DNA of 64,000 nt from Bacteroidales bacterium (lineage in GTDB: Bacteria > Bacteroidota > Bacteroidia > Bacteroidales > UBA7960): assembly GCA_003559855.1 (NCBI GenBank), contig PWJZ01000067.1, forward strand, positions 36-64,035, written 5' to 3'. The notes under the pieces are model-generated. The model was given only the letters and a program-made list of their open reading frames with translations, searched no databases and was not told the DNA's origin. Position numbers and translations under genes: made by a program. Below, piece by piece: positions 10,517 through 31,074 of the stretch; the first letter of the stretch is position 1; each line of letters opens with the position of its first letter.

Positions 10517-10696
10517 TTAAGGTTAATATGGTTAAATATAGGATTTCCGGGCAAGTTTGTTAAAACATAATTTGTGTTGAACAAGATTATTTATTACTTA
10601 ATAAAAATAGCTTTCTGTCTATGTAAAGAATTGCCTTGCAAGCTTTTATAAATAAAGCTTTTTAGAATTGGCCGATCATTGTATCTTAAGAATTCA

Positions 10697-10704
10697 CAAA
10701 TTTA
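10697..10704 (-). promoter_or_regulatory. Candidate -7 box TAAATTTG upstream of the 920-aa kinase
   Basis: The plus strand reads caaattta, which is TAAATTTG on the minus strand. It lies about 180 nt upstream of the ATG at 10516. The same octamer sits upstream of the paralog. Confidence 0.3.
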
Positions 10705-10919
10705 AACAATATTTTATTTAGGCATAAACTTGAGTTGATAAAATTTAATTATTGACAATTTTTATATTTTCTCGATGCTTTTTTATTGATCAGGATGTTT
10801 TTGTTCTTAGTTTGGTTTTCAGCATTTTCGAACAAAACGGTGTTTTTCCGGTCAGGTATCGTTGAATGATTTATTTTCGGATTTATCTATCAACGGCGGG
10901 ACGCATGTGGATCAGATAT

Positions 10920-13900
10920 TTATTTCGGGTAGAAATTTTGGATCAATTCATTAAGATCTTTTTCATTGACAGGTTTCGTAAGATATTCGTCCATACCCAG
11001 TTTTATGTATTTCTCGCGGTCACCTTCGAAGGCATTGGCGCTGAGACCTATTATAGGCGGGAGTTCGGCAAATTTTTTCCTTAATTTTTTTGTAGCTGTA
11101 ATGCCGTCCATAACGGGCATTTGAATATCCATAAGTATGAGGTCAAATTTATTTTTAGCGCATATTTCCAGGGCTTTTTTTCCGTTATTAGCCGTTATCA
11201 CGTTGTGCCCCATTGATTCGAGGATAAGAGCAAGGACTTTTTGATTTACGGGCTTATCTTCAACGTGCAATATGTTGAGTGATTGCGGATATCGGCTTGC
11301 TTTTTTGCCATTACTGCCTGGTACGTGTTCGGCAGTTTCTTCAGCCCTTTTGGCTTTGTATGTGAACCAAAACAGGCTGCCTTTATTAGTTCGGCTTTTA
11401 ACGCCGATTTTGCCTCCCAGTATTTCGCAAAGCCCCTTGCAAATCGATAAGCCTAATCCTGTTCCGTCTATGTCGCGTGTATCGCCCTGATCTATTTGCG
11501 AAAAGGGCTTGAAAAGATGTTTCTGAACCTCAGGTTTGATACCAATGCCGGTATCTTCGACTTCCATCTTAACCAAAAAGTTCCCTTTCGTATCAATTGG
11601 AGTTTCGGATCTTATTCTAAGGCTTATTTTGCCTTTATCCGTGAATTTGACCGCGTTTGAGAGCAAATTGTAAATTATTTGCAAAACACGCTGTTCGTCG
11701 GTTTTGATATATTCGGGTAAGTCAGGACAGATTTTTGTTTCAAGCTCTATGTCTTTATTGCAAATGGATTCGAAAAGTTTTTCCACATTCTCAAACAGCG
11801 ATTTGATTGAAAATATCCTTGGTTTCAATAATACTTCACCGGCTTCTATTTTTGAATAATCTAATATCTGGTCAATTATTTCCCTGAGATTTTCGGTTGA
11901 GTATCTCAATGAATTAAGATATTCCCGTTGGTAAGGTGTAAGATTTGTTTTGCCGAGTATTTCGGCCATGCCCATGATACCCGTAAGCGGGGTTCGTATC
12001 TCATGGCTCATGTTGGCAAGGAAATTTTTCTTGAATTCAAGCGAACGTTTTGCTATAGTCACTTCTTCTTTAAGCTTCTGGCTTTGCTGGCGTTCGGTAA
12101 TATCGCGGGTTACACCCAAAACTTTTGATTCTCCTGACATTTCTACCCCAATGGTCATCAGCTCCAGAGCTTTTAATTCCCCGGTTTTGGTTATGATTTG
12201 GGTTTCATAAACAGCCGGTTTTTTTACACCTTTTCGGCGTTCTTTATACCATTTTTCAACGATATCCTTTCCTTTTTCGGTTGTCATAACACCAAAGTCG
12301 AAATCTTTTGAAGTAAGTTCTTCCCTGCTATATCCGGTGATTTCGCAAAACTTGTCATTTACATATTCATAATGTCTGTCATGTAACAGGTATATACCGC
12401 TAAATGCATTTTCAACAAGCATGCGGAATTTTTCTTCGCTTTCATGCATTGCTTTCAGGGCAAGCTTTGCCCTGGTAATGTTTTCAACAACTCCGTCATA
12501 ATATAGTATATCGCCGTTTTTACCCTTCACTGCTTTTACACTTTCACGGACAAATACAATCGATCCGTTTTTATGTTTCCATTCGGTTTCATGACCGATT
12601 ATCTCTTTCTTTTCAGCAATGAGTTTAATAAACTCGTTGCGTGCTGTATTTTTTGAAAAGTATTGTTTTTGTAAAAGATTACGTTCAGCCAGTTCATTAA
12701 AAGATTTATAACCGAGCATTTTTACCAGTGCCTGATTTGCCAGTATTATTTTTCCCTGTGGTGTTGCCCTGTATAGCCCGAGTGAAGAGTTCTGATAAAT
12801 GCTTCGGAATCGTTCTTCGCTTTCTTTCAGGGCTTTTTCTGTAAGCTTTTGCTGGGTTATGTCGCGGTTTATTACCAGTGATTGTTTTTCACCATTCCAT
12901 AATATTTCCTTTCTATATATGATAAGATGGCGTGTTTCTTCGTTTTTCCTCACAATGCTTACTTCATATTCCTCAGGTCCGAAATGTCCTTGCTTTCTTA
13001 ATTTGTTTCTGGCAAGAAATGCTTCATAGCTGTCTTTTGTGTAACGTTTTTTTACAGGTGTTTTTTTCAGCTCTTCAATAGAGTCGTAACCATATATATC
13101 AAGCATGGCACGGTTGACATAGACAGTCTTATAGTTTTTTGATACAATCCTCATTCCGAGTGGAGATTCATTGAGTGAGTGATGGAAATTTTCTTTAGCC
13201 TGCCTGAGCTCTTCCTCATTTTTTTTGCGTTCTGTCACATCACGAACAATTGCCAGCACATGGTCCTTATCGATGGGAGATACTCTTGCTTCAAAAGACA
13301 TTGGCATGCCGTTTATGGTCAGTTTATACTCCAAAGTCTGCAATTCACCTGTATCCAGGCATTTCCCGAAGGACTCCCTGAACCGGTCGGCTTCAGCGGC
13401 AGGAAATATATTATTTAAATTTGAACCGATCAGTTTGTCGGGTGGTAAAACAAGCTTTGAATGGTTGTTGGCCAGTACATCAATATAATTACCGTCTCTG
13501 TCAAAAACGAAAAACAAGTCGGGCATTGTTTTCAGAATAGCATTAATTTTTGCCGATTGTTCTTCTATTTTTGTTTTCTGCTTTTTTTGTTCGGTAATAT
13601 CAGTAATGAAGCCTTCCAGTAAAACCGGTATGTTATTACTGTCGTACAATCCCTGGCCCTGCTCCCAAACCCATTTATAATTGCCTCCGGTGTCTTTTAT
13701 CCTGTAAATGATGGTAAATTTCGTCTGATTTTGCAAGGCTTTTTTTACTGCTTCCTTGACTTTTTGGCGATCATCTTCATGAATTATTTCATTATAGGAT
13801 ATGTTCTTATTTTTTATCAGGTCGCCGGGTTCATATCCTGTGATATTTTTTACGCCCGGGCTGACATATTCCATGGTCCATGATTCATCATTTATACAAC

Positions 13901-14453
13901 GATAGACCATTCCGGGCAGGTTGCTGATAAGCGTGTTGTACATGCGCTCGCGTTCCTGAAGCTCGCTTTTTGCAAGGTAATTGTCAGAAATATCACGACT
14001 AACAGCAATCACTGCTCTTTGTCCATGATATTTGCCGGGTGTTAAACTTACTTCCTTCGGAAAAACATTACCGTTTTTGTCAATACCCCAAAATTCAAAT
14101 CTTTGAGGTTTACCATAATAAGCTTTTTTTACGTATTTTTTTATTGATTCGATATCGTTCATGCCTGGCGCCGAAAGAAATGCCGGGGTTTTTCCCATAA
14201 AGTATTCTCTTGAATGCCCATAAAGCAACCCTGCCGAACGATTCACATCCAGAAAGTAACCGTCCTTGTCCTGAATATAGATAGCTTCACTGATGCTGTC
14301 AATTATTTCCTTGAATTCTGATCTTGTCAATAACTCTTCCTCTGCTTCAATGAATTTCTTCTGAAGCAAAAACAACTCTCCCTTTAATGCTTTATTCTCT
14401 ATTTCAAGTTTTTCAATCCTGCTGCGAATATTTTCTTTTAAAGTATTTTCCAT
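10920..14453 (-). CDS. Multi-PAS hybrid sensor histidine kinase / response regulator (paralog of 7754-10516)
   Basis: 1177 aa. The N-terminal about 150 aa are collinear with the neighbouring kinase (both have ...AVIAVSRDI...). Extra PAS units. H-box NMSHEIRTPLTG, HATPase motifs and a receiver (LILMDIQMPVMDG). Confidence 0.9.
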   Translation of the reverse strand: MENTLKENIRSRIEKLEIENKALKGELFLLQKKFIEAEEELLTRSEFKEIIDSISEAIYIQDKDGYFLDVNRSAGLLYGHSREYFMGKTPAFLSAPGMNDIESIKKYVKKAYYGKPQRFEFWGIDKNGNVFPKEVSLTPGKYHGQRAVIAVSRDISDNYLAKSELQERERMYNTLISNLPGMVYRCINDESWTMEYVSPGVKNITGYEPGDLIKNKNISYNEIIHEDDRQKVKEAVKKALQNQTKFTIIYRIKDTGGNYKWVWEQGQGLYDSNNIPVLLEGFITDITEQKKQKTKIEEQSAKINAILKTMPDLFFVFDRDGNYIDVLANNHSKLVLPPDKLIGSNLNNIFPAAEADRFRESFGKCLDTGELQTLEYKLTINGMPMSFEARVSPIDKDHVLAIVRDVTERKKNEEELRQAKENFHHSLNESPLGMRIVSKNYKTVYVNRAMLDIYGYDSIEELKKTPVKKRYTKDSYEAFLARNKLRKQGHFGPEEYEVSIVRKNEETRHLIIYRKEILWNGEKQSLVINRDITQQKLTEKALKESEERFRSIYQNSSLGLYRATPQGKIILANQALVKMLGYKSFNELAERNLLQKQYFSKNTARNEFIKLIAEKKEIIGHETEWKHKNGSIVFVRESVKAVKGKNGDILYYDGVVENITRAKLALKAMHESEEKFRMLVENAFSGIYLLHDRHYEYVNDKFCEITGYSREELTSKDFDFGVMTTEKGKDIVEKWYKERRKGVKKPAVYETQIITKTGELKALELMTIGVEMSGESKVLGVTRDITERQQSQKLKEEVTIAKRSLEFKKNFLANMSHEIRTPLTGIMGMAEILGKTNLTPYQREYLNSLRYSTENLREIIDQILDYSKIEAGEVLLKPRIFSIKSLFENVEKLFESICNKDIELETKICPDLPEYIKTDEQRVLQIIYNLLSNAVKFTDKGKISLRIRSETPIDTKGNFLVKMEVEDTGIGIKPEVQKHLFKPFSQIDQGDTRDIDGTGLGLSICKGLCEILGGKIGVKSRTNKGSLFWFTYKAKRAEETAEHVPGSNGKKASRYPQSLNILHVEDKPVNQKVLALILESMGHNVITANNGKKALEICAKNKFDLILMDIQMPVMDGITATKKLRKKFAELPPIIGLSANAFEGDREKYIKLGMDEYLTKPVNEKDLNELIQNFYPK

Positions 14454-14654
14454 TCGCTGAAAACAATTAACAATTAAATTTTATAATATTAAGCCCTATG
14501 GTACTATATTAATGAACGCATTGGTTTTTCAGCGGCTGACTGACCGGCTTTGTGATCGCCGAAAAGCCAATGATGATCGTAAACGGCCTGTATTTATTAC
14601 ACTCTGTAATAAATATTTGGCTTATTATATTATCTACCTATTTAATTTTGTTTA

Positions 14655-14662
14655 CAAATTTA
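14655..14662 (-). promoter_or_regulatory. Candidate -7 box TAAATTTG upstream of the 1177-aa kinase
   Basis: The plus strand reads caaattta, which is TAAATTTG on the minus strand. It lies about 200 nt upstream of the ATG at 14453. Confidence 0.3.
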
Positions 14663-15020
14663 TAAAAATATTTTTTCACACAAATTAGTAAGATTACTTA
14701 ATAAATACTATAAATTATCCTATAAGAATTCTTAACATAGAGATCATTTAGTTTTTTATTTACCACAATTTTTCGGAAACCCGATTTTGTTGTCCGATCC
14801 GTTTTTTATTAACCCAAAATAGTTTATAACTTTTTTTACAAAATATAAATAACACTTATCAAAACCGAAATTATATCTTGTCCGGGAAATATCAGCCTCA
14901 GATATTAATTGTTAATTGGCAGGTGCAGAACAACCCGGCTGATAAAAGAAATCTTTAAAACATTGTTTTTACCATCTGACAAATAACGGGGAGAGATTTA
15001 CGTTTTACCGAATATTTTCA

Positions 15021-15028
15021 TACATTTG
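15021..15028 (+). promoter_or_regulatory. Candidate -7 box TACATTTG
   Basis: Matches TAnnTTTG, 120 nt upstream of the GLUG-protein ATG. Confidence 0.3.
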
Positions 15029-15147
15029 CAGCATATTTTCGTTTATAACGAATTGAATTATTCGTTCCGTTAAGCTTATTTTACATTTTTAAACAGCCTT
15101 TTCAGGCGATAAACGCTCGGTTTTTATAATAATCAAAAACTTTAATT

Positions 15148-16602
15148 ATGAGGAAAATTTTATCATTGACAACTGTTTTATTTTTAAGTGCGGGTATTTT
15201 TGCACAGACTTCAACGCCACCGGCATCGGGCGAAGGTACGGAAACCGATCCCTATGAGATTTCCAGCCTCGAAAACCTTTATTGGATAGCTGAGAATGTT
15301 GACCGTTGGAATTATCATTATGTACAGACTTCTGATATTGATGCATCGGAAACATCAGGCTGGAATGACGGTGAGGGATGGCAGCCGATAGGATATTATT
15401 TTTATGATGATGAAATAATTGAATATTTTGAAGGTTCTTACAACGGCCAAGGATATTCTATTGACGGTTTGTATATCAACAGGCCTGAAGAAGAAAACCA
15501 GGGATTATTTGGCATAACATATATGGCAAAGATCGTCAATTTGGATATGACCAATGTTGATATAACGGGTTGCGAATTAGTTGGCGCTATAGTTGGCTGG
15601 AATTACTGTTATTCGGAAATAAAGAATTGCAGTGTAACGGGTAATATAAGCGGCAGTGATATTGTCGGGGGTATTGCCGGAACCAGTATGTCGGGCAGTG
15701 TAATTGACAACTGCAATTTTACAGGCAATGTAGAGGGAAACATATCAGGCGGCATCACAGGACTAAATACTGCTTCTACTGTTATAAACTGTTTCAGCCA
15801 GGGCGACATATCGGGTGACGGAGCGGGTGGCCTGGTAGGTCAGAACATATCTAATTCGATAGTAAGCAAAAGTTACAGTACAGGTAATATTTTTGGTGAA
15901 AATATTGCCGGCGGGCTGGTAGGGAATAATTATGAATCGGAAGTGCACAACAGCTACAGTACGGGCAACGTATCAGGCGAGATACAGGTTGGCGGTCTGA
16001 TAGGCTTTAATCATATGTCTGAAGTAACCGACAGTTATAGTACCGGAAAAGTTACAGCCAACAGCGAGTTTGGCGGTTTGATAGGTTTTGCTTTTGGTTC
16101 GGATGTTTCCAACAGCTACTGGGATACCGAAACATCAGGTCAAACCGATTCAGACGGTGGTGAAGGCCGAACAACAGATGAAATGACATATCCTTATTCG
16201 GAAAATACCTATGCAGGCTGGGATTTTGAAAATATATGGATTGCCGACACGGATCACTCCGTTAACAATGGCTATCCCTATTTGCGTGATGACCCTACAT
16301 CAGTTCCGGATATTACAAAGCATGATATGACGGAAATGATGATTTACCCGAATCCGTTCAATACCGCTACTACAATAAGATTTGAATATTCCGGCAATGA
16401 TCCCGTTCAGCTTGTGATATATAACTTTTCAGGGCAAGTGGTAAAAACCGCTGATCGTTTTTCACATGACGGCAACGGGTACTATTTTGTTTGGCAGGTT
16501 GATGACGGAACCGGCACCGGCATCACTCCGGGTGTATATTTTGCAGTAATTAAGTCGGCAGGAAAGCTGATAGGATCAGGTAAAATGATATTGTCGGAAT
16601 AA
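15148..16602 (+). CDS. Secreted GLUG-motif repeat protein with T9SS type A C-terminal sorting domain
   Basis: Signal peptide (LSAGIFAQ). At least six roughly 27-aa repeats containing GG(L/I)(V/I/A)G (GLUG motif). C-terminal YPNPFNTATTIRF...KMILSE is typical of Por_Secre_tail. Confidence 0.8.
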   Translation: MRKILSLTTVLFLSAGIFAQTSTPPASGEGTETDPYEISSLENLYWIAENVDRWNYHYVQTSDIDASETSGWNDGEGWQPIGYYFYDDEIIEYFEGSYNGQGYSIDGLYINRPEEENQGLFGITYMAKIVNLDMTNVDITGCELVGAIVGWNYCYSEIKNCSVTGNISGSDIVGGIAGTSMSGSVIDNCNFTGNVEGNISGGITGLNTASTVINCFSQGDISGDGAGGLVGQNISNSIVSKSYSTGNIFGENIAGGLVGNNYESEVHNSYSTGNVSGEIQVGGLIGFNHMSEVTDSYSTGKVTANSEFGGLIGFAFGSDVSNSYWDTETSGQTDSDGGEGRTTDEMTYPYSENTYAGWDFENIWIADTDHSVNNGYPYLRDDPTSVPDITKHDMTEMMIYPNPFNTATTIRFEYSGNDPVQLVIYNFSGQVVKTADRFSHDGNGYYFVWQVDDGTGTGITPGVYFAVIKSAGKLIGSGKMILSE

Positions 16603-16615
16603 ATGCTGGTCTTAA

Positions 16616-17683
16616 CTAATTTTTTTCAATCACATTCCTGTAAAGTGATATGATCTTGTTTGACATTAAATCTGATGACAGGTCTTTTTGAATTTTCCCG
16701 GCCAGGGTTATTGCCTCTTGTTGCAATCTGGCCTGGTCATTAAAAAACGTTTCTATTGCTGTCAGGATTGAATGTTTGCAAGGTGGTGATGCTCCGGTAT
16801 CGACAAAATTGGTATGTTTTATATCCTTAAAATTTTCTTTTGTCAACATACCACCCATTCGTTTCGAATTGATCATAAGTACAGGCACGCCTGCGGCGGA
16901 AGCTTCAAGCGCTACCCTTCCTACTCCCATTACAAGCGATGTACTTTCATAATAAGGCAATAATGATGATTTGTATCCTAACACCTTGCAGAAATTTGAG
17001 TATGTTCTTATATTCAATTTTTCAGACAGGTTTTTCAGTTCAGTTATTTTTTTTCCGTCGCCGATGATCCAAAACTCAAGCTGAGGGTATTTCCCTTTCA
17101 ACACCGGCAAAACTTTATTAATCAAAATTTTAAGAAAAGAAAAATGTGACTTGTTAATTTTGCTAACGTAACAGATCCTGTATGGCCTCGGATTGTTATT
17201 GAGTAGCTCTACGGATCTTATGCCATTGGGTATGAAAACAGATTTGCCGTCAAAATTGTACTTTCTATTTGATATTTGAAGAATCCTTTTGCTGACGAAT
17301 ATAATTTTGTTTGATAAACGTCGCGAAAGAGCATGCCTCAAGTCATACCTGGTTCTGCCGTGAACCGTTGATATTACCTTACGACGTGTAATAAAGCCGG
17401 CTAAACAAGCATTCAAAATGGCAAGACGTTGATGGGCATGTATAATATCCACATTATGCCTTATGATCAGAAAGGTTAATCGTAATATGTGGCAAGGGAT
17501 CAAAAAATCAGTCAGTTTTATAGGTATGTATTTTATTTTGGGGTTTAATTTTTCTACCTGTCGACCCTTTCCTGTTGCCAGGATCACATTGTGCCCTTTT
17601 TCACAAAGATCGTTTGCCAAATCACAAACATGATTTTCTGCTCCTCCAAAATCAAATCGTTTAATAACCAGTAAAATTGTCAT
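16616..17683 (-). CDS. Glycosyltransferase family 4 (GT-B fold)
   Basis: 355 aa. N-terminal KRFDFGGAENHV (the GGxE motif of GT4 N-domains) and C-terminal GVGRVALEASAAGVPV (E-x7-E region). Confidence 0.75.
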   Translation of the reverse strand: MTILLVIKRFDFGGAENHVCDLANDLCEKGHNVILATGKGRQVEKLNPKIKYIPIKLTDFLIPCHILRLTFLIIRHNVDIIHAHQRLAILNACLAGFITRRKVISTVHGRTRYDLRHALSRRLSNKIIFVSKRILQISNRKYNFDGKSVFIPNGIRSVELLNNNPRPYRICYVSKINKSHFSFLKILINKVLPVLKGKYPQLEFWIIGDGKKITELKNLSEKLNIRTYSNFCKVLGYKSSLLPYYESTSLVMGVGRVALEASAAGVPVLMINSKRMGGMLTKENFKDIKHTNFVDTGASPPCKHSILTAIETFFNDQARLQQEAITLAGKIQKDLSSDLMSNKIISLYRNVIEKN

Positions 17684-21850: not shown

Positions 21851-23734
21851 ATGAAAAGACCAGTCCTGTTTTTCTGTTTCTTCTTATTTCTGATTCCTAT
21901 CCTTAAAGCTGAGCGATTTCAGCCTGATGACTTTGTTGAGATGGAAGCTTTTCTGGATGGTATTGTCAGAACTTTAATTGACGAAAAGCACATTGCCGGC
22001 GCAACGATGTCGGTAGTATATGATGGTGATATAGTTATCAGCAAGGGATATGGTTATGCCGATCTTGACGGCAAAATTGAAGTGGATCCTGAGAAAACCC
22101 TGTTTCGCATTGCATCCATATCCAAGATGTTTACGTGGTTTTCGGTTTTGCAACTTGTTGAGCAGGGCAAGCTTGATCTTGACGCCGACATTAACGAATA
22201 CCTGACGGAATTCAAGATTCCCGGCACTTTTGATGAGCCTGTTACTTTGCGTAGTTTGATGGCTCATGCGGCGGGATTTGAGGAGAGGCTGCTTCACCTG
22301 TTTGTAAAGGATAAAGATGATATGATTCCTTTGGGTGAGCTTTTACCTTTGCAGCTTCCCGAAAGAGTACGCCCGCCGATGAGGCACTCATCGTACAGCA
22401 ACCACAGCACCGGTTTGGCTCAACATATTGTGGAGCTGACAAGCGGTATGGCTTTTGAAGATTATGCCGAAAAACATATTCTGTACCCGCTGGAGATGAA
22501 AAACACCACTTTCCGTCAACCTATACCTGTCGGGTTGAGTGAAAATATGTCGGGAGGTTATCTGTTTAACGGCAGTGAGTTTAAAAGAATGTATTTTGAA
22601 TATGTTCCTATGAGTGGTGTGGGCGGAGCATCGTCATCGGCCGTCGACATAGCCCGTTTTATGAAAATGCTCATGAATAAGGCGTGCCATAAGGATGTGT
22701 GCCTGTTAGACTCAGCTACCTACGAGCTGATGAAGCAACCCGCATTGATACATGCAGAAGGTGTCAATCCTGCCAGGCACGGTATTATGGATATGAGCTT
22801 TAATAACATTGAAATTTTAGGCCATGGCGGTGCAACGTTCTGGTTTCACTCGGTTATGGCAATATTGCCCGAACATGATCTTGGCTTCTTTTTGTCATTC
22901 AACAGTGCCGGTGGTTCGGGCACAACCAGAAATGTGATGAACAAGCTGGTTGAACGGTACTATACAGACCCGAAGCCTTTGCATAACACCATAAGCCTCG
23001 ATGACGAATATCTTGAACGCTTTGAAGGTAAGTATATGACCAACCGCCGGTCACATTCCTCATTCTTCAAATTGCGCGCCATAGAAAACCCTACCCTGAT
23101 CACTAAAGAAAAACAAAAGCTGCGTATGGATGAACCCCGAAAAGCAGCAGCATGGTACCTGCCCGTCGATTCAACAACATTTAGGGAAAAGAACAGCAAC
23201 AAGATGATAGCTTTTGAATTGAATGACGGCAAAGCAGAATACCTGTTTAAAGACCATTTCTGCTTCCGGGCTTTCGAAAGAATTAAAGGTGCATACAACC
23301 CGGATATGCACAAGGTTATATTCAGAGCATCATTAACCGCAGTAGTATATGTTCTGTTAATTTTACCATTATGGTATCTTGTAAGAAGATATTATTTGCC
23401 GGCAAGGAAAATTTCAAAACCTATACCGCTTAATGCAAAATTGATGGCATGGTTGTGCTCAGCATGCCTTGCAGTAGCATATATCCTGATCAGCTCGGCA
23501 CTTGATACCGGAAGAGAACTGATACTTGATGTTCCGGCAGGTTTGAAAGCAGGTCTGTTGATCCCGTTTGCAGTAATGTTTTTCCTGATCTTGATGATAT
23601 GGAGAAGCATAGAAATGTGGAAAAACAAAGAAACCGCATTGCGAAACAACCTTTTCTATTCATTGGTAGTCATTATATATATTGCTGCATTGTGGCAATT
23701 GCACTTCTGGAATTTTATGGGATGGAGGTTTTGA
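21851..23734 (+). CDS. Serine hydrolase (beta-lactamase / PBP4-like family) with C-terminal membrane domain
   Basis: SxxK motif in RIASISKMFT, then YSN, then HGG. Signal peptide after the ATG at 21851 (MKRPVLFFCFFLFLIPILKA). Four hydrophobic helices in the last about 130 aa. Confidence 0.8.
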   Translation: MKRPVLFFCFFLFLIPILKAERFQPDDFVEMEAFLDGIVRTLIDEKHIAGATMSVVYDGDIVISKGYGYADLDGKIEVDPEKTLFRIASISKMFTWFSVLQLVEQGKLDLDADINEYLTEFKIPGTFDEPVTLRSLMAHAAGFEERLLHLFVKDKDDMIPLGELLPLQLPERVRPPMRHSSYSNHSTGLAQHIVELTSGMAFEDYAEKHILYPLEMKNTTFRQPIPVGLSENMSGGYLFNGSEFKRMYFEYVPMSGVGGASSSAVDIARFMKMLMNKACHKDVCLLDSATYELMKQPALIHAEGVNPARHGIMDMSFNNIEILGHGGATFWFHSVMAILPEHDLGFFLSFNSAGGSGTTRNVMNKLVERYYTDPKPLHNTISLDDEYLERFEGKYMTNRRSHSSFFKLRAIENPTLITKEKQKLRMDEPRKAAAWYLPVDSTTFREKNSNKMIAFELNDGKAEYLFKDHFCFRAFERIKGAYNPDMHKVIFRASLTAVVYVLLILPLWYLVRRYYLPARKISKPIPLNAKLMAWLCSACLAVAYILISSALDTGRELILDVPAGLKAGLLIPFAVMFFLILMIWRSIEMWKNKETALRNNLFYSLVVIIYIAALWQLHFWNFMGWRF

Positions 23735-23760
23735 GGATCGCTTTATGATTAAATAAAGAC

Positions 23761-23850
23761 AGGGGTGTGGGAAGATGACAGCGAGAGAAAAGAAGAGTGT
23801 GAGAAGATGAGAAAAGGAGATGGGGAGAGGGTGAGAGGTTGAGGAGAAAC
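23761..23850 (+). repeat. Purine-rich (GA) low-complexity tract
   Basis: About 90 nt composed almost entirely of G and A (aggggtgtgggaagatgacagcgagagaaaagaagagtgtgagaagatgagaaaaggagatggggagagggtgagaggttgaggagaaac). It holds one copy of gagaagatgagaa; the other is at 24017-24029. Confidence 0.7.
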
Positions 23851-24239
23851 GTACTGTGTGGCCTTTGTCGTTTTTGCGTGAGATTCATTTACTGAAAAGC
23901 TCTTATATGGCCAGGCTGCTAAAATACGGTGTGTTGCAATTAGTTATATAGGAGATCACAAAGGGTTCTGATAAAATAGCAAGGTTTCTCTTGTCAGCTA
24001 TTGAAAGCATAAAGATGAGAAGATGAGAAGTGGGAGACCAGCAGACTACATTTTCCCTGGATTAAAAAACGCTTGAGGGATAAGTTGATAAGTAAAGCTG
24101 GCAATCAGCCTTTGCAGATTGCAGATTGAGAATCGAGCCACGTGGTAAATCATTCGGTTTTTTACTTGATATTTTCGTATACTGCTAACCGGAATGAAAA
24201 ACATTATTATGTTTATTAATTTATTTATATACTTTTTTA

Positions 24240-24247
24240 TATATTTG
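24240..24247 (+). promoter_or_regulatory. Candidate -7 box TATATTTG for the DsrC-type operon
   Basis: Matches TAnnTTTG, 22 nt upstream of the ATG at 24269, at the end of a 530-nt intergenic region. Confidence 0.45.
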
Positions 24248-24268
24248 CCGGGTTAAATAATTTTAAAT

Positions 24269-24505
24269 ATGCCCTCAGATTGTACAAATTACAGTACATG
24301 TCCACTCACCAATAACCCCGGCTTTATTTCCGAACCCGGGGAAAAAGATCATTATACAGGAAAATATTGCCGGGCAGGCTATAAAAACTGGAGCAGGTGT
24401 AAAAGATATATGATCAAATTAAAGTACCATTTCTGCCCTGATTTTGTTATGCCTGATACGCCTGAGTCTGCCGATGAAATTCTGGATAAATTTGAAGAAA
24501 CATAA
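24269..24505 (+). CDS. Small cysteine-rich protein (78 aa), family not recognised
   Basis: Five Cys (C5, C11, C34, C44, C56) and an acidic C-terminus. It is the first gene of a closely spaced same-strand gene set and sits directly behind a candidate promoter. Confidence 0.45.
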   Translation: MPSDCTNYSTCPLTNNPGFISEPGEKDHYTGKYCRAGYKNWSRCKRYMIKLKYHFCPDFVMPDTPESADEILDKFEET

Positions 24506-24548
24506 TAAAATAAGAGGAATAAATTGTTAATGGTTTAACTTTATTAAT

Positions 24549-24866
24549 ATGCCGACAATAGAGATTGAAGAAAAAGTATTTGAAGTAGATGGTAATGGTT
24601 TTTTGACCCATCCTGAGATATGGGATGAGGAAGTTGCCAGGCTGATTGCAAAATATGACGGAATAAATGAATTAACGGATCAGCATTGGGCGGTTATAAA
24701 TATTATCAGGAAGAATTATGAAGAAAAGGGTATGGCACCTATGATAAGGCAGATATGCAAATCTGCGGGGCTTAAACTTCGTCAGATATATGAACTTTTT
24801 CCTCTTGGTCCAGCCCGGGGAGCTTGCCGGGTTGCAGGATTACCGAAACCTGACGGTTGCGTTTAA
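24549..24866 (+). CDS. TusE/DsrC/DsvC family sulfur-relay protein, two-cysteine (DsrC-type) C-terminal arm
   Basis: 105 aa. The C-terminus ...LFPLGPARGACRVAGLPKPDGCV carries a penultimate Cys plus a second Cys 11 residues upstream (C-x10-C). This is the DsrC hallmark, in contrast to single-Cys TusE. Confidence 0.85.
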   Translation: MPTIEIEEKVFEVDGNGFLTHPEIWDEEVARLIAKYDGINELTDQHWAVINIIRKNYEEKGMAPMIRQICKSAGLKLRQIYELFPLGPARGACRVAGLPKPDGCV

Positions 24867-24882
24867 TTAAAAACTTTAAGTT

Positions 24883-25509
24883 ATGGCATGGTATTATTGG
24901 CTTGCATCAGCCTCACTGGTAATATGTATATCCGGCTGTATATATCATTTTGCAAGGCTTATCATGCTGGGTAAGCCCAGGGATCATTCTACAAGGTCCG
25001 GCAGCCCTGCCGGAGGAATAGTCTATTCCTTCACCCGGGCAATGAACCCTGCCGGCAAAGAATCAGCTTATCTTAACCTTCCAACCTATGCCATGGGAGT
25101 TATATATCACATAGGCACATTTATCGCAATAATCCTGTTTTTCGTTTTCTTTTTGTCTGAAAACATAAATGAGATGATGACAGTGCCGTTTGCAATATTT
25201 TTGTTTTTGTCATCACTATGCGGAATCATAATTTTAATGAAACGTATTTTTGATAAAAAGTTAAGAAAACTCTCAAACCCCGACGATTATATTTCAAATA
25301 TGCTTGTTACCGGTTTTCAGGCAGCTAGCGGGATAGTGTTGTTGACACCTTCCACATATCCGGTATATATGGTGATTACGAGTTTGTTACTGCTTTATTT
25401 GCCCCTTGGTAAATTGAAACATGTGATCTATTTTTTTGCTGCCCGGTATCATATCGGTTATTTTTATGGGTGGCGCAATGTATGGTATGTAACAAAACAG
25501 AAACAATAG
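24883..25509 (+). CDS. Five-helix membrane protein, NarI/DsrM/HdrE-like candidate quinol-interacting subunit
   Basis: 208 aa with about 5 TM helices. His residues lie in or next to helices (YHFARL, YHIGTF, KHVIYF, RYHIGYF). The gene sits 16 nt after the dsrC-type gene and 3 nt before the CCG Fe-S gene. Assignment rests on topology and context, not strong motifs. Confidence 0.5.
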   Translation: MAWYYWLASASLVICISGCIYHFARLIMLGKPRDHSTRSGSPAGGIVYSFTRAMNPAGKESAYLNLPTYAMGVIYHIGTFIAIILFFVFFLSENINEMMTVPFAIFLFLSSLCGIIILMKRIFDKKLRKLSNPDDYISNMLVTGFQAASGIVLLTPSTYPVYMVITSLLLLYLPLGKLKHVIYFFAARYHIGYFYGWRNVWYVTKQKQ

Positions 25510-25512
25510 CAG

Positions 25513-26814
25513 ATGGAAAAAATCAATGACATCAAAATAAAAACAGCTTTGGAGGTTTTAAACTCGCATGATGACAGCAAGCTGATATCTCATCTTAACA
25601 GCTGCGTTCATTGCGGGTTATGTGCCAAAACCTGTTTGTACTATCTTACTATCGGAGATGAGCGATTTATACCCGCGAGAAAAGTCGAACTTGTTTCATC
25701 AATATACCGCAGGTATTTTACTGTTATGGGGAAAGTTTTGCCTGCGCTGGTCAGTGCACGAAAGCTTGATGACAAGATGATTGAAGAGATGGTTGATCTG
25801 CTATATGGAGGTTGTGTCATGTGCGGGCGTTGTGTCAGGCACTGCTCAATTGGGGTTGACATTGAGTATGTGGTAAGGAAAGGTCGTGAAATGCTGGCTA
25901 AGATGGGTTATGTACCCGAATCTCTCCAGTCAACGGTAAAAGCTGCTCTAGAAACAGGTAATAACATGGGTATTTCATATGAAGATTTTGTTGATACAAT
26001 AGAATGGATGGAAGAAGAGTTGCAGGAAGAATGTAATGATCCTGAAGCCCGTATTCCTCTTAACGAGCCGGGGAAGAATGTGTTGTATACTTTGAATCCG
26101 CGTGAGCCGAAGTTCTTTCCGCTTTCCATATCAGCTATGGCGAAAGTGTTTTACCTTGCCAAAGAAAGCTGGACGTTGTCAACAAACATGTATGATGTTA
26201 CCAATTATGCTTATTTTTCGAGCCATCCAGGCGAAGCCAAAGCCATAGCACAACGTATGTATGATGAAATGCAAAATATGAAATCCGGCAGGCTTGTGCT
26301 GGCAGAATGTGGTCACGGAGTAAGATCCAACAGGTGGGAAGCGCCAAATTATATCGAAAAGGGTTTTTTTTTCGAAGCATTAACATCCGTAGAGCTGATA
26401 GCTGAATATATAAGGAAAGGACGTATCAGACCCGACAGGGAAAGGATGAAAGATGCCGTAACACTGCATGATCCATGCAATCTTGCAAGGGGTTCGGGTA
26501 TTGTGGAAGAGCAGAGGTACATTCTTAAGAATTGTGTAAGTAATTTTGTTGAGATGACACCGCACGGTACCGACAACTTTTGCTGTGGCGGTGGCGGCGG
26601 TCAGCTGGCCATGAGCGAATATAACGACAGGAGGCTGAAAATTGCCGAACTGAAAGTGAGGCAAATACGCAAAACGGGAGCGGCTATCGTAGTTACACCA
26701 TGCCACAACTGTATTGACCAGTTGACTCAGATAAATGTTACTTATAACCTTAACATACAGATAAAGACCCTTGCAGAGATTGTTGCCGACTCTTTGCCGG
26801 TTTTAAAAGAATAA
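25513..26814 (+). CDS. DsrK/HdrD-like (Fe-S)-binding protein with CCG domain
   Basis: Two ferredoxin-type motifs, CVHCGLCAKTC and CVMCGRCVRHC. C-terminal CCG pattern HDPC ... FCCGGGGG ... TPCHNC (C-Xn-CC-Xn-C-x2-C), as in heterodisulfide reductase catalytic subunits. Confidence 0.8.
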   Translation: MEKINDIKIKTALEVLNSHDDSKLISHLNSCVHCGLCAKTCLYYLTIGDERFIPARKVELVSSIYRRYFTVMGKVLPALVSARKLDDKMIEEMVDLLYGGCVMCGRCVRHCSIGVDIEYVVRKGREMLAKMGYVPESLQSTVKAALETGNNMGISYEDFVDTIEWMEEELQEECNDPEARIPLNEPGKNVLYTLNPREPKFFPLSISAMAKVFYLAKESWTLSTNMYDVTNYAYFSSHPGEAKAIAQRMYDEMQNMKSGRLVLAECGHGVRSNRWEAPNYIEKGFFFEALTSVELIAEYIRKGRIRPDRERMKDAVTLHDPCNLARGSGIVEEQRYILKNCVSNFVEMTPHGTDNFCCGGGGGQLAMSEYNDRRLKIAELKVRQIRKTGAAIVVTPCHNCIDQLTQINVTYNLNIQIKTLAEIVADSLPVLKE

Positions 26815-26837
26815 TTTTTCAATAAACTCTTTCAGTT

Positions 26838-28001
26838 ATGCAAAATATGATATACCTTGACAATGCGGCTACCGCCTTTCCGAAGCCCGACGAAGTTTAT
26901 ACGTTTATCGATGAGTTTTACCGCAGCAATGGCGTGAGCCCCGGCAGGTCAGGCTTTGATGCGTCATTGGAGGCTGAAGAGCTGGTAGCTGAAACGCGCA
27001 GAATTCTCATGAACCTGTTTAACGGCGACGGCGACCCCGACAGGCTCACATTCAGCTATAATGCCAGTGACTCTCTGAATATGATAATACAAGGTATTGC
27101 CAAAGAAGGAGATCATGTCATTACAAGTATGATTGAACACAATTCCGTTTTGAGACCGCTGCACCATCTCGCACTGAATGGTATCATCGAAGTAACACAT
27201 GTGCCGTTTGACCAGCATGGCTATATTGACCCCGATGATATCAGAAAAGCATTAAGGCCCAACACCAAAATGGTTGTGTTAAATCATTGTTCAAACATCA
27301 TAGGTACAATACAGCCTGTAGGTGAGGTGGGTAAGATCTGCCGGGAGGCGGATGTGTTATTGGTGGTTGACGGGGCACAGGGCGCCGGAGCGGTAAAGGT
27401 TGACATGCAGGCTATGGGTATTGATGTTTATGTGTTTACCGGGCATAAGTCGCTGATGGGCCCTACCGGCATCGGCGGTTCCTACGTTATGAAAGATGTT
27501 CCCGTAAAATATACGCGATTCGGAGGTACAGGAGTGCGCTCGGCACAACTTACGCATCTTGAAGAATTTCCCTACAGGCTTGAATGCGGAACCCTCAATA
27601 TGATCGGTGTGGCCGGATTAAACGCAGGAGTAAAGTGGATAAACAAAACCGGAATGGAAAAATTGCATAATCAAGAACTGGCCTTATGGGACAGGCTGAG
27701 AAAAGGATTGCAAAAAATTGACAGGGTCATAACATACTGCGCCGAAAACACTGAAAACCAAAACCCCGTGCTGAGCTTCAATATAGATGGAATACCTGCA
27801 GGCGACGTCGGTATGATGCTTGATGTTGATTATAACATCGCTTGCCGGACAGGATTGCAATGTGCACCTAAAGTGCATGAAAAAATAGGAACAATAGATA
27901 TAAAAGGAACCGTAAGATTCGGTATCGGACCATTCAATACCAAAGAACATATTGATGCCGCTGTTAAAGCCGTTGAAGAAATTGCGGAAATGAAAATTTG
28001 A
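26838..28001 (+). CDS. Class V aminotransferase-fold PLP enzyme, SufS/CsdA-type cysteine desulfurase-like
   Basis: 387 aa. YLDNAATAFP start, PLP-lysine context FTGHKSLMGPTGIGG and active-site loop ACRTGLQCAP (R-x-G-x-x-C-A). Confidence 0.8.
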   Translation: MQNMIYLDNAATAFPKPDEVYTFIDEFYRSNGVSPGRSGFDASLEAEELVAETRRILMNLFNGDGDPDRLTFSYNASDSLNMIIQGIAKEGDHVITSMIEHNSVLRPLHHLALNGIIEVTHVPFDQHGYIDPDDIRKALRPNTKMVVLNHCSNIIGTIQPVGEVGKICREADVLLVVDGAQGAGAVKVDMQAMGIDVYVFTGHKSLMGPTGIGGSYVMKDVPVKYTRFGGTGVRSAQLTHLEEFPYRLECGTLNMIGVAGLNAGVKWINKTGMEKLHNQELALWDRLRKGLQKIDRVITYCAENTENQNPVLSFNIDGIPAGDVGMMLDVDYNIACRTGLQCAPKVHEKIGTIDIKGTVRFGIGPFNTKEHIDAAVKAVEEIAEMKI

Positions 28002-28163
28002 AAATGCTGTTCTTCGAAAATAAAATTAACCGGTTCCGATCAGAAAACAGACATTAAGATTGATCTGTCTTGTATCTGCTGTTAATTACGTCCGGTTTTT
28101 TGTTAGGATCAGACCCTGCCTGTTTAATAAAAATGTGTAAAATTTTAAACGTTATTTTTATTT

Positions 28164-28197
28164 CCTGCTGCTGCCAAGCAGATGGCAGGATTTTTTT
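28164..28197 (+). terminator. Intrinsic terminator candidate
   Basis: cctgctgctgccaagcagatggcagg forms an outer stem CCTGC/GCAGG and an inner stem CTGC/GCAG. It is followed by a run of 7 T, about 160 nt after the desulfurase stop. Confidence 0.5.
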
Positions 28198-28605
28198 ACA
28201 GTGGCAATATGCATGTAATTGAAATGGCAATGTTTTTTAAAGCGACGGTCATCGCTTTTACTCCACAGGGTTATTCGCAACTTTAAGCGATATATCATCT
28301 GAATGAAATATGTTAAACGTCTGGTTTGTAATAATATATGTCTTGTAAACCAACGTTAATAAATCCGGCCCTGCGGAAACCCTTTTACATATTTTTAAAA
28401 ACTTAAAAACATTTTATTGTATTGAAATTTTTTCAGTCGTTTTAAAAAAAGTCTTATATTCGTTTAACAAATTATATATATGGCAATAACCATAAAATAA
28501 CAAAAAAAAATGTGATGTTAAGGTATGTTTTATCATAAGTATAGCTAATGAAGCCGAGACAATTAATAAGAATTAAATCTATTTGTTAACAAAAATCAGA
28601 AAGTT

Positions 28606-31074
28606 ATGAGAACAATCCTATTATTTATTTTATCATTTATTATTGCAGCCTTCAGCATAAAAGCCGATGAATCGGTTACACTGGTTTTTTCGGCAAAGCA
28701 TCCCGGTGGCCATGTAAAACTTGACAGCATTTTGGTTGAAAACCTCACACAGGATGGTTCTTTGATGCTCTATGGTGGCGATACCGTCCTTGTACTGACT
28801 ATTACACATATTGATTTTATGGGTAGCGGTTATAACGGCTTTTATGTATCACAGAATTACCCCAATCCTTTTTCATCGGAAACGACAATAGATGTATATG
28901 TTGCGGAAGCGGATGTTTTCACTTTGGATGTTTATGATCTGACGGGACGTAAATTAACGAGTTATGGGTCTGTTCTGCAGCCGGGCATGCATCATTTCAC
29001 TTTTCATGCATGCAACCTGCAAAATTATATTTTAACTGTCGGTTCGAAAAAATATAAGCAGCAGCGTTTGATGATACAGATGGGCCAGGCAGGCACATCT
29101 TCGCCGGGGATAACTTACAATGGCATTTCAACGCAAATGAAAGCGGTACAGTATTACAAATCTGATACAGGCTTTCCTTTTGATCCCGGTGATGAGCTTA
29201 GGTTTATCGGTTATGTTACCGGCGAATATGGCAATGTAAGTTATGATATTATTACTGATGCTCCAACAACTGATATGGAATATGTTTTTGATATCACCTT
29301 TCCAACATACAACCTGGCGTTGAATGCAGATCCGGAGGAAGGCGGCATTGTTGACGGCGATGGTGAGTATCAGGAAGGTGAAGGAGCAACTATTATCGCA
29401 ACTGCAAACGAAGGATATGAATTTATTAACTGGACGGGAGATACAGAGCATGTTGATGATCCCGGATCAGATACGGCAACTGTAATTATGCCGGCTGAAG
29501 ATGCAGAACTCACTGCTAATTTTAAAATGCAGGATTATCACCTTACCCTTGGAGCAAACCCCGAAGAAGGAGGTAACCTTGCAGGTGAAGGCGAATACAA
29601 TATGGGAGAAGAAGTGGAAATCGTTGCCGAAGCAAATGAAGGTTGGGAATTTGTTGAATGGACAGGCGATACGGAACATGTTGATGATCCCGGATCAGCC
29701 ACAGCAATTGTAACTATGCCGGCTGAAAATGTTAACCTTACTGCCAATTTCAATATGCTGTATTACCAGCTTTCACTTGAAGCTGATCCCGAAGAAGGAG
29801 GCAACGTTGCAGGTGAAGGCGAATACAATATGGGAGAAGAAGTGGAAATCGTTGCCGAAGCTAACGAAGGATGGGTGTTTGTCGAATGGACAGGTGATAT
29901 AGAGCATGTAAATGATCTGGGATCTGCAACAACAATTGTGACCATGCCGGCTAAAGATGTGGAGCTCACAGCAAACTTTGCACCATTGCATACTCTCACC
30001 CTTAATACAAATCCCGAAGGAGCCGGAATTGTATACGGTGCAGGTGAATATATGGAAGGCGAAGAAGTAGAAATTACTGCCGAAGCCGTTGAAGGCTGTG
30101 ATTTTATTGAATGGACAGGCTACACAGAGTATGTTGATGATCCCGGATCTGCTACGGCAATAGTAACTATGCCGGCTGATGATATAGAACTAACCGCTAA
30201 TTTTGAGGTACAGGAAAATTATTATATCCTCACGCTTGTTGCTTGCCCGGGAGCAGGTGGTACTGTTGAAGGTGCGGGTGTGTATCAAGCAGGTGCATTA
30301 GTGAATGTTACTGCAACTTCAAATCCGGGAAGTATGTTCATAAACTGGACTGATGAATACGCTGTACAAGTCAGCGCAAATACAGAATATACTTTCAATA
30401 TGCCGGCAGAAGATATGACTCTTAAAGCCTATTTTAAGTACCCCGGCGATGGCGTCACCGACATTGACGGCAACACTTATCCTACTTATATCATTGGTTG
30501 CAATTACGAGTGGATGGCGACAAACCTCAAAACCACCACTTACAATGACGGTAATGAAATACCCAATGTAACCGATAATGAAGAATGGACTAATCTGAGT
30601 ACAGGAGCTTACTGTTGGTACAATAATGATTATGGACAATATGGTATTATATATGGAGCATTATATAATGCGTATGCTGTTGAAACAGGTAAGCTTTGCC
30701 CTGATGGCTGGCGTGTACCAACGGATGAAGAATGGAAATACCTTGAAGGCACTGTTGATACACAATATGGTATTGGTGACCCTGTATGGGACGGCACAGG
30801 ATATGGGAGAGGATATGATTGTGGCATTAGGTTGAAAGCATCGGGAATGTACGGCTCAAATGAGTATGGTTTTACAGGTACGGCAGGCGGTGTAAGATTC
30901 TTCTTTAATGGAAACTTCGGCAATGTGGGTGTTGCTGGCTTCTGGTGGGGCTCCACAATTGGGCCTGCAAATGGCTGGCGCCGCTCCCTGAGCATTGCGC
31001 AGGAAACCGTTGCACGTGGTTACTACGATAAAAGATCAGGATACTCTGTGCGCTGTGTCAGGGATGTTGATTAA
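28606..31074 (+). CDS. Secreted multi-domain protein: N-terminal module with a T9SS-sorting-domain-like segment, five Listeria-Bacteroides (InlB B-repeat-like) repeats and a C-terminal FISUMP domain
   Basis: Signal peptide. Residues about 79-158 read YVSQNYPNPFSSETTIDVYV...KQQRLMIQ (Por_Secre_tail-like). Five roughly 76-aa repeats (..PEEGG.V.G.GEY..GE...I.A.ANEG(Y/W)EF..WTGD...V.DPGS.TA.V.MPA.D..LTANF). C-terminus TDIDGNTY...WMATNL...YGALYNAYAV...CPDGWRVPTDEEW...SVRCVRD is the Fibrobacter succinogenes major paralogous domain. Confidence 0.8.
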   Translation: MRTILLFILSFIIAAFSIKADESVTLVFSAKHPGGHVKLDSILVENLTQDGSLMLYGGDTVLVLTITHIDFMGSGYNGFYVSQNYPNPFSSETTIDVYVAEADVFTLDVYDLTGRKLTSYGSVLQPGMHHFTFHACNLQNYILTVGSKKYKQQRLMIQMGQAGTSSPGITYNGISTQMKAVQYYKSDTGFPFDPGDELRFIGYVTGEYGNVSYDIITDAPTTDMEYVFDITFPTYNLALNADPEEGGIVDGDGEYQEGEGATIIATANEGYEFINWTGDTEHVDDPGSDTATVIMPAEDAELTANFKMQDYHLTLGANPEEGGNLAGEGEYNMGEEVEIVAEANEGWEFVEWTGDTEHVDDPGSATAIVTMPAENVNLTANFNMLYYQLSLEADPEEGGNVAGEGEYNMGEEVEIVAEANEGWVFVEWTGDIEHVNDLGSATTIVTMPAKDVELTANFAPLHTLTLNTNPEGAGIVYGAGEYMEGEEVEITAEAVEGCDFIEWTGYTEYVDDPGSATAIVTMPADDIELTANFEVQENYYILTLVACPGAGGTVEGAGVYQAGALVNVTATSNPGSMFINWTDEYAVQVSANTEYTFNMPAEDMTLKAYFKYPGDGVTDIDGNTYPTYIIGCNYEWMATNLKTTTYNDGNEIPNVTDNEEWTNLSTGAYCWYNNDYGQYGIIYGALYNAYAVETGKLCPDGWRVPTDEEWKYLEGTVDTQYGIGDPVWDGTGYGRGYDCGIRLKASGMYGSNEYGFTGTAGGVRFFFNGNFGNVGVAGFWWGSTIGPANGWRRSLSIAQETVARGYYDKRSGYSVRCVRDVD
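29306..30440 (+). repeat. Five in-frame tandem coding repeats (period about 228 nt)
   Basis: Repeat units begin near 29306, 29524, 29752, 29980 and 30220. Units 2 and 3 share a perfect 53-nt stretch (29581-29633 = 29809-29861). Confidence 0.85.

Follow-up and report, generated by a model that had tools for sequence, protein, structure and literature searches.

What would a two-cysteine DsrC and a DsrMK-like membrane module do in an organism with no dissimilatory sulfite reductase (DsrAB) in view? The question is raised by a compact operon of five genes (g1–g5) on contig PWJZ01000067.1 of a Bacteroidales bacterium, within a 64,000-nt stretch that we refer to as the window. In order, the operon encodes a small Cys-rich protein, a DsrC, a membrane protein, an iron-sulfur (Fe-S) protein with a CCG motif, and a predicted pyridoxal phosphate (PLP)-dependent cysteine desulfurase. 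The reading we favor, with a probability of about 0.45, is that DsrC is charged with sulfane sulfur from cysteine and that menaquinol, via the DsrMK-like module, reduces this sulfur to H2S. Dissimilatory sulfur metabolism that runs on DsrAB counts DsrC and DsrMK among its hallmarks, and a two-Cys DsrC in a genome without DsrAB is described as a rare exception (PMC3397948). In the present family, at least several hundred species of heterotrophs abundant in sediments keep a two-Cys DsrC and a catalytically complete DsrMK-like pair in fixed association with a desulfurase. The components all belong to known families. We found no description of their fixed combination, in lineages where DsrAB is not known, in the literature searched, including the main Dsr comparative-genomics papers and studies of metagenome-assembled genomes (MAGs) from soda lakes and Zodletone.

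Conservation is the first line of evidence that these genes form a unit. Among genomes sampled at one per GTDB species, 437 species carry a relative of g4, and we analyzed the best 80 loci. Using tblastn and clustering of open reading frames (ORFs), we recovered g2-g3-g4-g5, with order and orientation preserved, in approximately 78 of the 80, or virtually every locus of sufficient length. Identities are 64–94% for g2, g4, and g5 and 45–72% for g3. None of the flanking gene families is found in more than 11 of the 80 loci. Because the same four-gene order recurs in essentially all of these loci amid non-conserved flanks, the arrangement lies far beyond chance, and we rejected fortuitous clustering of ORFs as an explanation. 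A preliminary description of the window, made from its sequence alone, had looked to co-occurrence in related genomes, which the survey bears out across Bacteroidales and Ignavibacteria.

All of the best 80 loci derive from MAGs: approximately 62 are labeled Bacteroidales or Bacteroidota, 14 Ignavibacteria, and 4 carry other labels and are probably mis-binned or unclassified. Look-ups of sequence clusters for cultured carriers turned up only MAG or unnamed entries. In three cases, L057 (SACF01000007.1, Alphaproteobacteria), L017 (Phycisphaerae), and L029 (Chlorobiaceae), the label is at odds with the content of the locus, and the contigs are probably mis-binned; L057 shares 17 kb of synteny with L045 and L075, two loci of Bacteroidales/Prolixibacteraceae. 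Habitats named in the record titles include groundwater, a digester, and the sediments of lakes and soda lakes. The window itself belongs to a soda-lake sediment Bacteroidales population, with an identical protein in JGI sample 3300000365 and T3Sed10_157R1 as the nearest MAG.

The product of g2 has, by its sequence, the arm that defines a bona fide DsrC, namely a penultimate cysteine (CysA) and a second cysteine (CysB) 11 positions upstream. Its C terminus, GACRVAGLPKPDGCV, contains CysB C93 and CysA C104 in C-x10-C spacing and closes with the tail GLPKPDGCV. The protein scores 121.9 bits against PF04358 (cut-off 24.9) and 102.4 against TIGR03342 (cut-off 53.5), and among structures in the Protein Data Bank (PDB) it is nearest to sulfate-reducer DsrC subunits (2xsj_C, 4e-31; 2v4j_C, 2e-27). 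Identification as a two-Cys DsrC rather than a single-Cys TusE, as first proposed, is thereby upheld, and the arm extends through the family: the tail RGAC[RK][VIL]AGLPKPDGCV is present in 78 of 78 operon copies, and C93, C104, a third cysteine (C70), and D102 are each conserved in 95% or more of the 70 homologs aligned. A role as the TusE of tRNA thiolation was rejected on the score against the TusE equivalog model (NF008562; 65.8 bits, cut-off 191), the two-Cys arm, and the PDB ranking, in which the TusE-like sulfurtransferase 7syb is a much weaker match (9e-9). Three further DsrC-family matches in the surveyed loci are single-Cys TusE-like paralogs located outside the operon. Separately, C70 and the tail aspartate (PKPDGCV, versus PKPTGCV in sulfate reducers) could serve as sequence signatures of the operon-type DsrC subfamily.

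The g4 product carries two Fe-S cluster motifs (C31xxC34xxC37xxxC41 and C101xxC104xxC107xxxC111), a single complete CCG motif (DPC322...C357C358GGGGG...C397HNC400) that is the predicted site of a noncubane cluster, and an ECGH motif (E265-C266-G267-H268). A single CCG motif together with a strictly conserved, probably catalytic ECGH cysteine is the hallmark of DsrK (PMC10861901), and in g4 homologs all 14 motif cysteines, that of ECGH included, are kept in 79 of 79 aligned sequences. PF02754 (CCG) is matched at 50.8 bits, accompanied by Fer4_8/17 domains. Over its full length the protein matches the NCBIfam models for TmcB (NF045724; 282 bits, cut-off 735), HmcF (NF045711; 278 bits, cut-off 750), and DsrK (NF045796; 240.3 bits, cut-off 400); its sequence is thus below all three equivalog cut-offs yet conforms to the motif definition of DsrK. 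These scores agree with the DsrK-like assignment of the preliminary description. Assignment to the GlcF/LutA-type subunits of glycolate or lactate oxidases was rejected, as GlcF scores 45.4 bits against a cut-off of 333 and LutA is not matched; LutB/LldF (TIGR00273) reaches only 20 bits, and the 76-bit match to LdhH is confined to the CCG region.

The g3 product is more divergent. No profile is matched above its cut-off and no Pfam family is matched at all, Nitrate_red_gam included. Weak full-length NCBIfam matches to TmcC (32.5 bits, 5.9e-8; cut-off 240) and HmcE (31 bits, 1.8e-7; cut-off 275) are complemented by structure. An AlphaFold2 (AF2) model built from 34 homologs (pLDDT 86) has five long transmembrane helices, and a Foldseek search of the PDB returned NarI chains (1q16_C and others) as its top eight hits, the best seven with TM 0.48–0.52 and probability 1.0. 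Four histidines are conserved (H76 in 78/78, H180 in 77/78, H22 in 74/78, and H190 in 69/78), which in sequence terms is the number required for two b hemes. Fold and histidines support the original placement of the protein in the DsrM/HdrE/NarI position, and g3 is a putative di-heme cytochrome b of the DsrM/TmcC/HmcE/NarI type that reacts with quinol. The public gene call at NCBI begins at M28 and gives 181 aa, versus the 208-aa form, which adds the first transmembrane helix with the conserved H22; because homologs support the longer form, its start is the correct one on sequence grounds.

Several characterized systems pair a membrane cytochrome b with a CCG protein, and each resembles the operon in part. 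One is DsrC with DsrMK(JOP), for example in Archaeoglobus fulgidus (PMC10861901), which shares the two-Cys arm, the NarI-type di-heme b subunit, and, in the counterpart of g4, two [4Fe-4S] motifs, a single CCG, and the ECGH cysteine; the occurrence of the M and K subunits alone is likewise seen in many organisms. In contrast to that system, the operon lacks DsrAB, DsrD, DsrN, and DsrJOP, it is invariably joined by a cysteine desulfurase, g4 reaches 240 bits where the DsrK cut-off is 400, the DsrC differs in its PKPDGCV tail and in C70, and the hosts are Bacteroidales and Ignavibacteria. TmcBC of the Desulfovibrio TmcABCD complex and HmcEF of HmcABCDEF have the same cytochrome b/CCG pairing and are the best hidden Markov model matches of g4 and g3, although the scores fall far below cut-off. 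No tmcA or hmcA cytochrome c gene lies adjacent, and the operon is without a periplasmic multiheme cytochrome c (TmcA/HmcA) or TmcD, so its electrons probably come from the quinone pool and not from hydrogen in the periplasm. HdrDE of Methanosarcina offers a parallel in which a membrane b cytochrome oxidizes a lipid-soluble carrier and a cytoplasmic CCG protein reduces a disulfide, but HdrD has two CCG motifs where g4 has one, its substrate is CoM-S-S-CoB instead of the arm of a protein, and its donor is methanophenazine. Finally, the CCG region of Mycobacterium smegmatis EtfD (9ojn) is the sole PDB sequence match of g4 (1.1e-10), and the EtfD membrane domain is a weak fold match to g3. EtfD differs in being a fused 1042-aa protein that passes electrons from ETF to menaquinone in fatty-acid oxidation, with no DsrC or sulfur involved.

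The last gene, g5, is predicted to encode a cysteine desulfurase family protein of group II. It matches PF00266 (Aminotran_5; 284.8 bits), and its best PDB match is the cysteine desulfurase 5b7s (6e-55). The catalytic cysteine lies in RTGLQC342AP and the PLP lysine in H203K204; K204, C342, H101, and R337 are invariant among 70 homologs. The RTGLQCAP motif quoted in the preliminary description is present, but the term SufS-type used there needs revision as to family: g5 belongs to TIGR01977 (am_tr_V_EF2568; 419 bits, cut-off 377), and at 251.8 bits does not reach the SufS cut-off of 475.1 (TIGR01979). The founder of TIGR01977 is SclA (EF2568) of Enterococcus faecalis, which shares with g5 its group II membership, short N terminus, and catalytic Cys and Lys. 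Where SclA has H100, g5 has Asn, and the residue before its catalytic Cys is Gln instead of His; its gene context, too, is one of sulfur carriers, not of selD or a molybdenum hydroxylase.

This kinship brings selenium into consideration. If g5 were a selenocysteine lyase like SclA, the sole characterized, selenocysteine-specific member of its family, DsrC might carry selenium that the DsrMK-like module reduces to selenide for SelD. The 320.6-bit score of g5 on the SclA model (NF040779) and a selenoprotein-subtype sulfide:quinone oxidoreductase (SQR) in one related locus fit such a role, but that score is far below the cut-off of 525, genes for selD, selA/B, or yedE/F are linked in none of the 80 loci, the linked accessory genes all encode sulfur carriers, and for the handling of a trace element, a membrane module of respiratory type seems too large. 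We regard a selenium pathway as highly improbable.

As initially reported, dsrAB is not in view; we did not find it in the 64-kb window or among the conserved neighbors of the 80 loci. Within Bacteroidota, the only entries in a survey of 950 genomes that encode dsrAB are Chlorobia, of the oxidative type, and five Kapabacteria (PMC10591310). CysB is reported to occur only where DsrAB is present, with a few exceptions (PMC3397948). Given this pattern, the operon family would constitute a large additional exception. Sulfate reducers often have additional dsrMK and dsrC copies, as in the paralogs of A. fulgidus, and our check for dsrAB covered the window and the conserved flanks; the operon might accordingly be an ordinary accessory dsrC-dsrMK copy in an organism with canonical dsrAB elsewhere. 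The spread of the family over 437 GTDB species, with the best 80 loci in Bacteroidales or Ignavibacteria MAGs, the confinement of dsrAB to Chlorobia and Kapabacteria within Bacteroidota, the scores of g4 and g3 below the DsrK and TmcC cut-offs, and an invariant partner that is no part of canonical dsr loci make this the least probable of the explanations we considered.

Gene identities, motifs, fold, and strict synteny are what the analysis shows; from them we infer each transfer step, its direction, and its possible coupling to energy conservation. The g5 enzyme would convert L-cysteine to alanine and hold the sulfur as a persulfide on C342, and the flexible C-terminal arm of DsrC would take up this sulfane sulfur on CysA C104. 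There is precedent for such loading, as IscS and cysteine persulfurate CysA of A. vinosum DsrC in vitro (PMC3397948). In some lineages TusA and DsrE2-like carriers may relay the sulfur. CysB C93 would act as the resolving residue, and the oxidized DsrC might be a disulfide formed after release of H2S, a trisulfide, or the persulfide itself. Reduction of the oxidized arm would take place in g4, at the noncubane [4Fe-4S] cluster and C266. This step mirrors the activity of DsrMKJOP, a menadiol:DsrC-trisulfide oxidoreductase that releases sulfide and for which DsrMK alone may suffice (PMC10861901). The electrons would come from menaquinol (MKH2), oxidized to menaquinone (MK) by the di-heme DsrM/NarI-like g3, for a net reaction of cysteine + MKH2 -> alanine + H2S + MK. 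If, by analogy to NarI, HdrE, and DsrM, quinol is oxidized at the outer face and protons are taken up inside, the step would be electrogenic. The operon would then constitute a self-contained DsrC cycle without DsrAB, serving peptide-fermenting anaerobes as a respiratory, Stickland-like electron sink.

Several points weigh against this pathway from cysteine to sulfide. By rough estimate, the cysteine/(alanine + H2S) couple lies near -0.1 V, about the level of menaquinone. With donor and acceptor roughly isopotential, the net energy gain at the terminal step is uncertain; by the same estimate, the couple would be a good sink for electrons from NADH or H2. The Gln before the catalytic Cys of g5 departs from the group II consensus RxGxHCA, and the activity of EF2568/SclA, the only TIGR01977 member to have been characterized, is selective for selenocysteine and inhibited by cysteine. 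H190 of g3 is missing from 9 of 78 homologs, and the HdrA/MvhD-like genes of some loci suggest that electrons may also take other paths. The absence of dsrAB, for its part, was judged from the window, the conserved flanks, and the literature.

A bolder version of the proposal is cysteine respiration, in which sulfane sulfur released from cysteine by a dedicated desulfurase is the terminal acceptor for menaquinol, via a minimal DsrMK-like complex, in an electrogenic, DsrAB-independent DsrC cycle that would produce alanine and H2S in hundreds of fermentative Bacteroidales and Ignavibacteria species of anoxic sediments. We offer it tentatively and consider it rather doubtful. If correct, it would represent a new type of anaerobic respiration, a cryptic source of sulfide from organic sulfur, and the simplest natural system in which to study DsrC/DsrK chemistry.

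Genes that accompany the core in subsets of loci, judged from their predicted families, indicate a link with cysteine metabolism and the trafficking of sulfane sulfur rather than with some unrelated redox function. A second, desulfurase-like class V PLP enzyme of 451–506 aa is encoded in 18 loci, positioned directly upstream of g1/DsrC in most cases (for example, L018 5513–7003 and L024 5481–7001) and downstream of the core in two. Inspected copies contain SPHK and RGGCxCAG motifs, and the enzyme is distant both from SufS (125 bits) and from g5 (~25% identity). A divergent Crp/Fnr regulator with an N-terminal Cys cluster, which fits with anaerobic control, is found in 11 loci, and a NifX-like protein ending in CCCP in 6. 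In L024, the segment directly 3' of the core (10628–16770) encodes a DsrE2-like protein (PF13686), TusA, an MvhD/FlpD-like protein, a 930-aa fusion of GltD/NAD(P)H-binding and HdrA domains, and a 667-aa HdrA-like protein. This downstream set recurs in L027, L036, L058, L066, and L068 and partly in L040, or 6–7 loci altogether, and may provide a soluble, possibly electron-bifurcating route tied to the same DsrC. Three loci (L018, L031, and L068) carry extra DsrE2-like and single-Cys TusE-like genes in addition to the two-Cys DsrC. Upstream of the core in L018 (1278–4104) are genes for a type III SQR, a DUF1641 protein, the single-Cys TusE-like protein, and the DsrE2-like protein. The SQR matches the selenoprotein-subtype model at 628 bits (cut-off 525). 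A CysK-like gene lies 3' of the L018 operon.

The lead gene, g1, belongs with these accessory components. It has no Pfam or NCBIfam match, and its family surfaced only in an index-free profile search, which yielded 109 matches, most of 60–130 aa, in a library of 1.84 billion proteins where a word-indexed search had given one. The protein contains cysteines at positions 5, 11, 34, 44, and 56, of which C5, C34, and C44 are invariant in the family and C11 nearly so. Its AF2 model is all-helical (pLDDT 91.5), and a fold search of this model against the PDB returned no match. Because g1 adjoins DsrC in only 37 of the 80 loci, being missing from most of those labeled Ignavibacteria, and because its distant relatives (25–36% identity) sit in unrelated gene contexts, we treat it as a lineage-specific accessory.

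These accessory genes also allow a different division of labor. The module could be a DsrC-dependent reductase for sulfane sulfur from polysulfide, S0, or SQR products delivered via TusA/DsrE2, the desulfurase (perhaps with g1) serving only to mature the Fe-S clusters of the DsrK-like protein, as NifS does for nitrogenase. The carriers do come from sulfidic sediments and soda lakes, SQR, TusA, DsrE2-like, and NifX-like genes are present in some loci, and the four to five conserved cysteines of g1 are of the kind that a cluster carrier might have. However, the position of the desulfurase is fixed in every complete locus whereas TusA, DsrE2, and SQR are each found in fewer than 10%, no scaffold of the NifU/IscU/SufBCD type is linked, and g1 is missing from more than half of the loci, its distant relatives being unlinked to these genes. 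A maturation role for g5 is in our judgment unlikely.

The same trafficking genes, together with the view that DsrMK(JOP) runs in this direction in sulfur oxidizers, call to mind an oxidative pathway. The DsrMK-like module would oxidize persulfidated DsrC to the trisulfide, reducing menaquinone, and a further enzyme would process the trisulfide; TusA, DsrE2-like, and SQR genes in some loci do resemble the trafficking of sulfur oxidizers. Nothing that would consume the trisulfide, such as rDsrAB or sHdr-LbpA, is linked, though, and DsrEFH is absent; the carriers appear to be fermentative anaerobes, and g2 is a slightly better match to DsrC structures of the reductive type. Operation in the oxidative sense is very unlikely on this evidence.

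There remains the purpose of the chemistry. In the IscS-TusA-TusBCD-TusE relay of Escherichia coli and in the SufS-SufE and CsdA-CsdE pairs, a PLP desulfurase passes a persulfide to a dedicated carrier, as we propose for g5 and DsrC. TusE is itself a member of the DsrC family, and TusA and DsrE-family proteins occur in some related loci. It is conceivable, then, that the operon is assimilatory or homeostatic, drawing on imported cysteine to provide sulfide or DsrC persulfide for the synthesis of Fe-S clusters, methionine, and thiolated tRNA or cofactors, with the quinol-linked reductase only recycling DsrC. The homology to TusE and the CysK-like gene of L018 agree with such a purpose. The operon departs from those relays in that its acceptor has a resolving Cys and is linked to a quinol-dependent reductase instead of a thiouridylase or Fe-S scaffold. 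Biosynthetic TusE proteins are single-Cys, and L018, L031, and L068 encode a separate one of this type beside the two-Cys DsrC; a membrane di-heme quinol oxidase is atypical of a biosynthetic relay; and no MnmA or other thiolation enzyme is linked. On balance, we think a biosynthetic purpose quite unlikely.

If the favored pathway from cysteine via DsrC to H2S is true, an organic-sulfur-driven, quinone-coupled route to sulfide has been overlooked by surveys based on dsrAB, and the surplus counts of dsrC and dsrMK in metagenomes would be explained. It would also caution against the use of dsrC or dsrMK as markers of sulfate or sulfite reduction. Furthermore, it would provide a four-protein system for reconstituting the loading and reduction of DsrC without a sulfite reductase, and could help to clarify the mechanism by which DsrC is reduced at a single noncubane cluster, and whether energy is conserved in doing so.

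The layout of the operon region is given in the table below.

Features of the operon region (coordinates refer to the window)
Feature	Coordinates	Strand	Basis or remarks
Plausible -7 promoter box TATATTTG	24240..24247	+	Bacteroidota-type consensus TAnnTTTG; first ATG 22 nt downstream
g1, 78 aa, cytoplasmic, Cys-rich, orphan family	24269..24505	+	No Pfam/NCBIfam match
g2, 105 aa, two-Cys DsrC	24549..24866	+	PF04358, TIGR03342; C93 + C104
g3, 208 aa, five-helix membrane protein, putatively DsrM/TmcC/HmcE/NarI-like	24883..25509	+	Fold + conserved His
g4, 433 aa, cytoplasmic Fe-S/CCG protein, DsrK/TmcB/HmcF type	25513..26814	+	PF02754, Fer4_8/17
g5, 387 aa, predicted group II PLP-dependent cysteine desulfurase family protein	26838..28001	+	TIGR01977
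Terminator-like hairpin CTGCCA-AGCAGA-TGGCAG then T-run	28171..28198	+	170 nt past g5 stop; consensus-scan pattern match only

ORF calls on the + strand reproduce the five genes and the intergenic gaps of 43, 16, 3, and 23 nt of the preliminary description, the -7 box it placed ahead of them is present as read, and the translations contain every motif that it quoted. Boxes of the TATATTTG type are located at -28 to -39 in the relatives L004, L005, L041, L077, L007, and L023. We grade this element a plausible rather than a proven operon promoter because an upstream motif scan found such a box in only 19 of 68 loci. FNR-box-like palindromes gave a single match upstream of the 68 loci scanned. 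An Rfam scan of 23600–28700 returned no match at E <= 1, and we therefore annotate no riboswitch or leader in this interval. The 530-nt gap 5' of the operon contains purine-rich, degenerate direct repeats of the TGAGAAGATGA type in 3–4 copies (23768–24029), which are low-complexity and without an Rfam match.

Beyond the operon, positions 28606–31074 encode an 822-aa secreted protein with five InlB B-repeat-like domains and, at its C terminus, a Fibrobacter succinogenes major paralogous domain; L001 and a small number of other loci have a similar protein immediately 3' of the operon. Farther away, on the - strand, two large adjacent ORFs at 7754–10516 (920 aa) and 10920–14453 (1177 aa) have similar coiled-coil-like N termini (MEDTSKNNARERISRLEEENRTLKEEN and MENTLKENIRSRIEKLEIENKALKGEL) and, by sequence, look like tandem paralogs.

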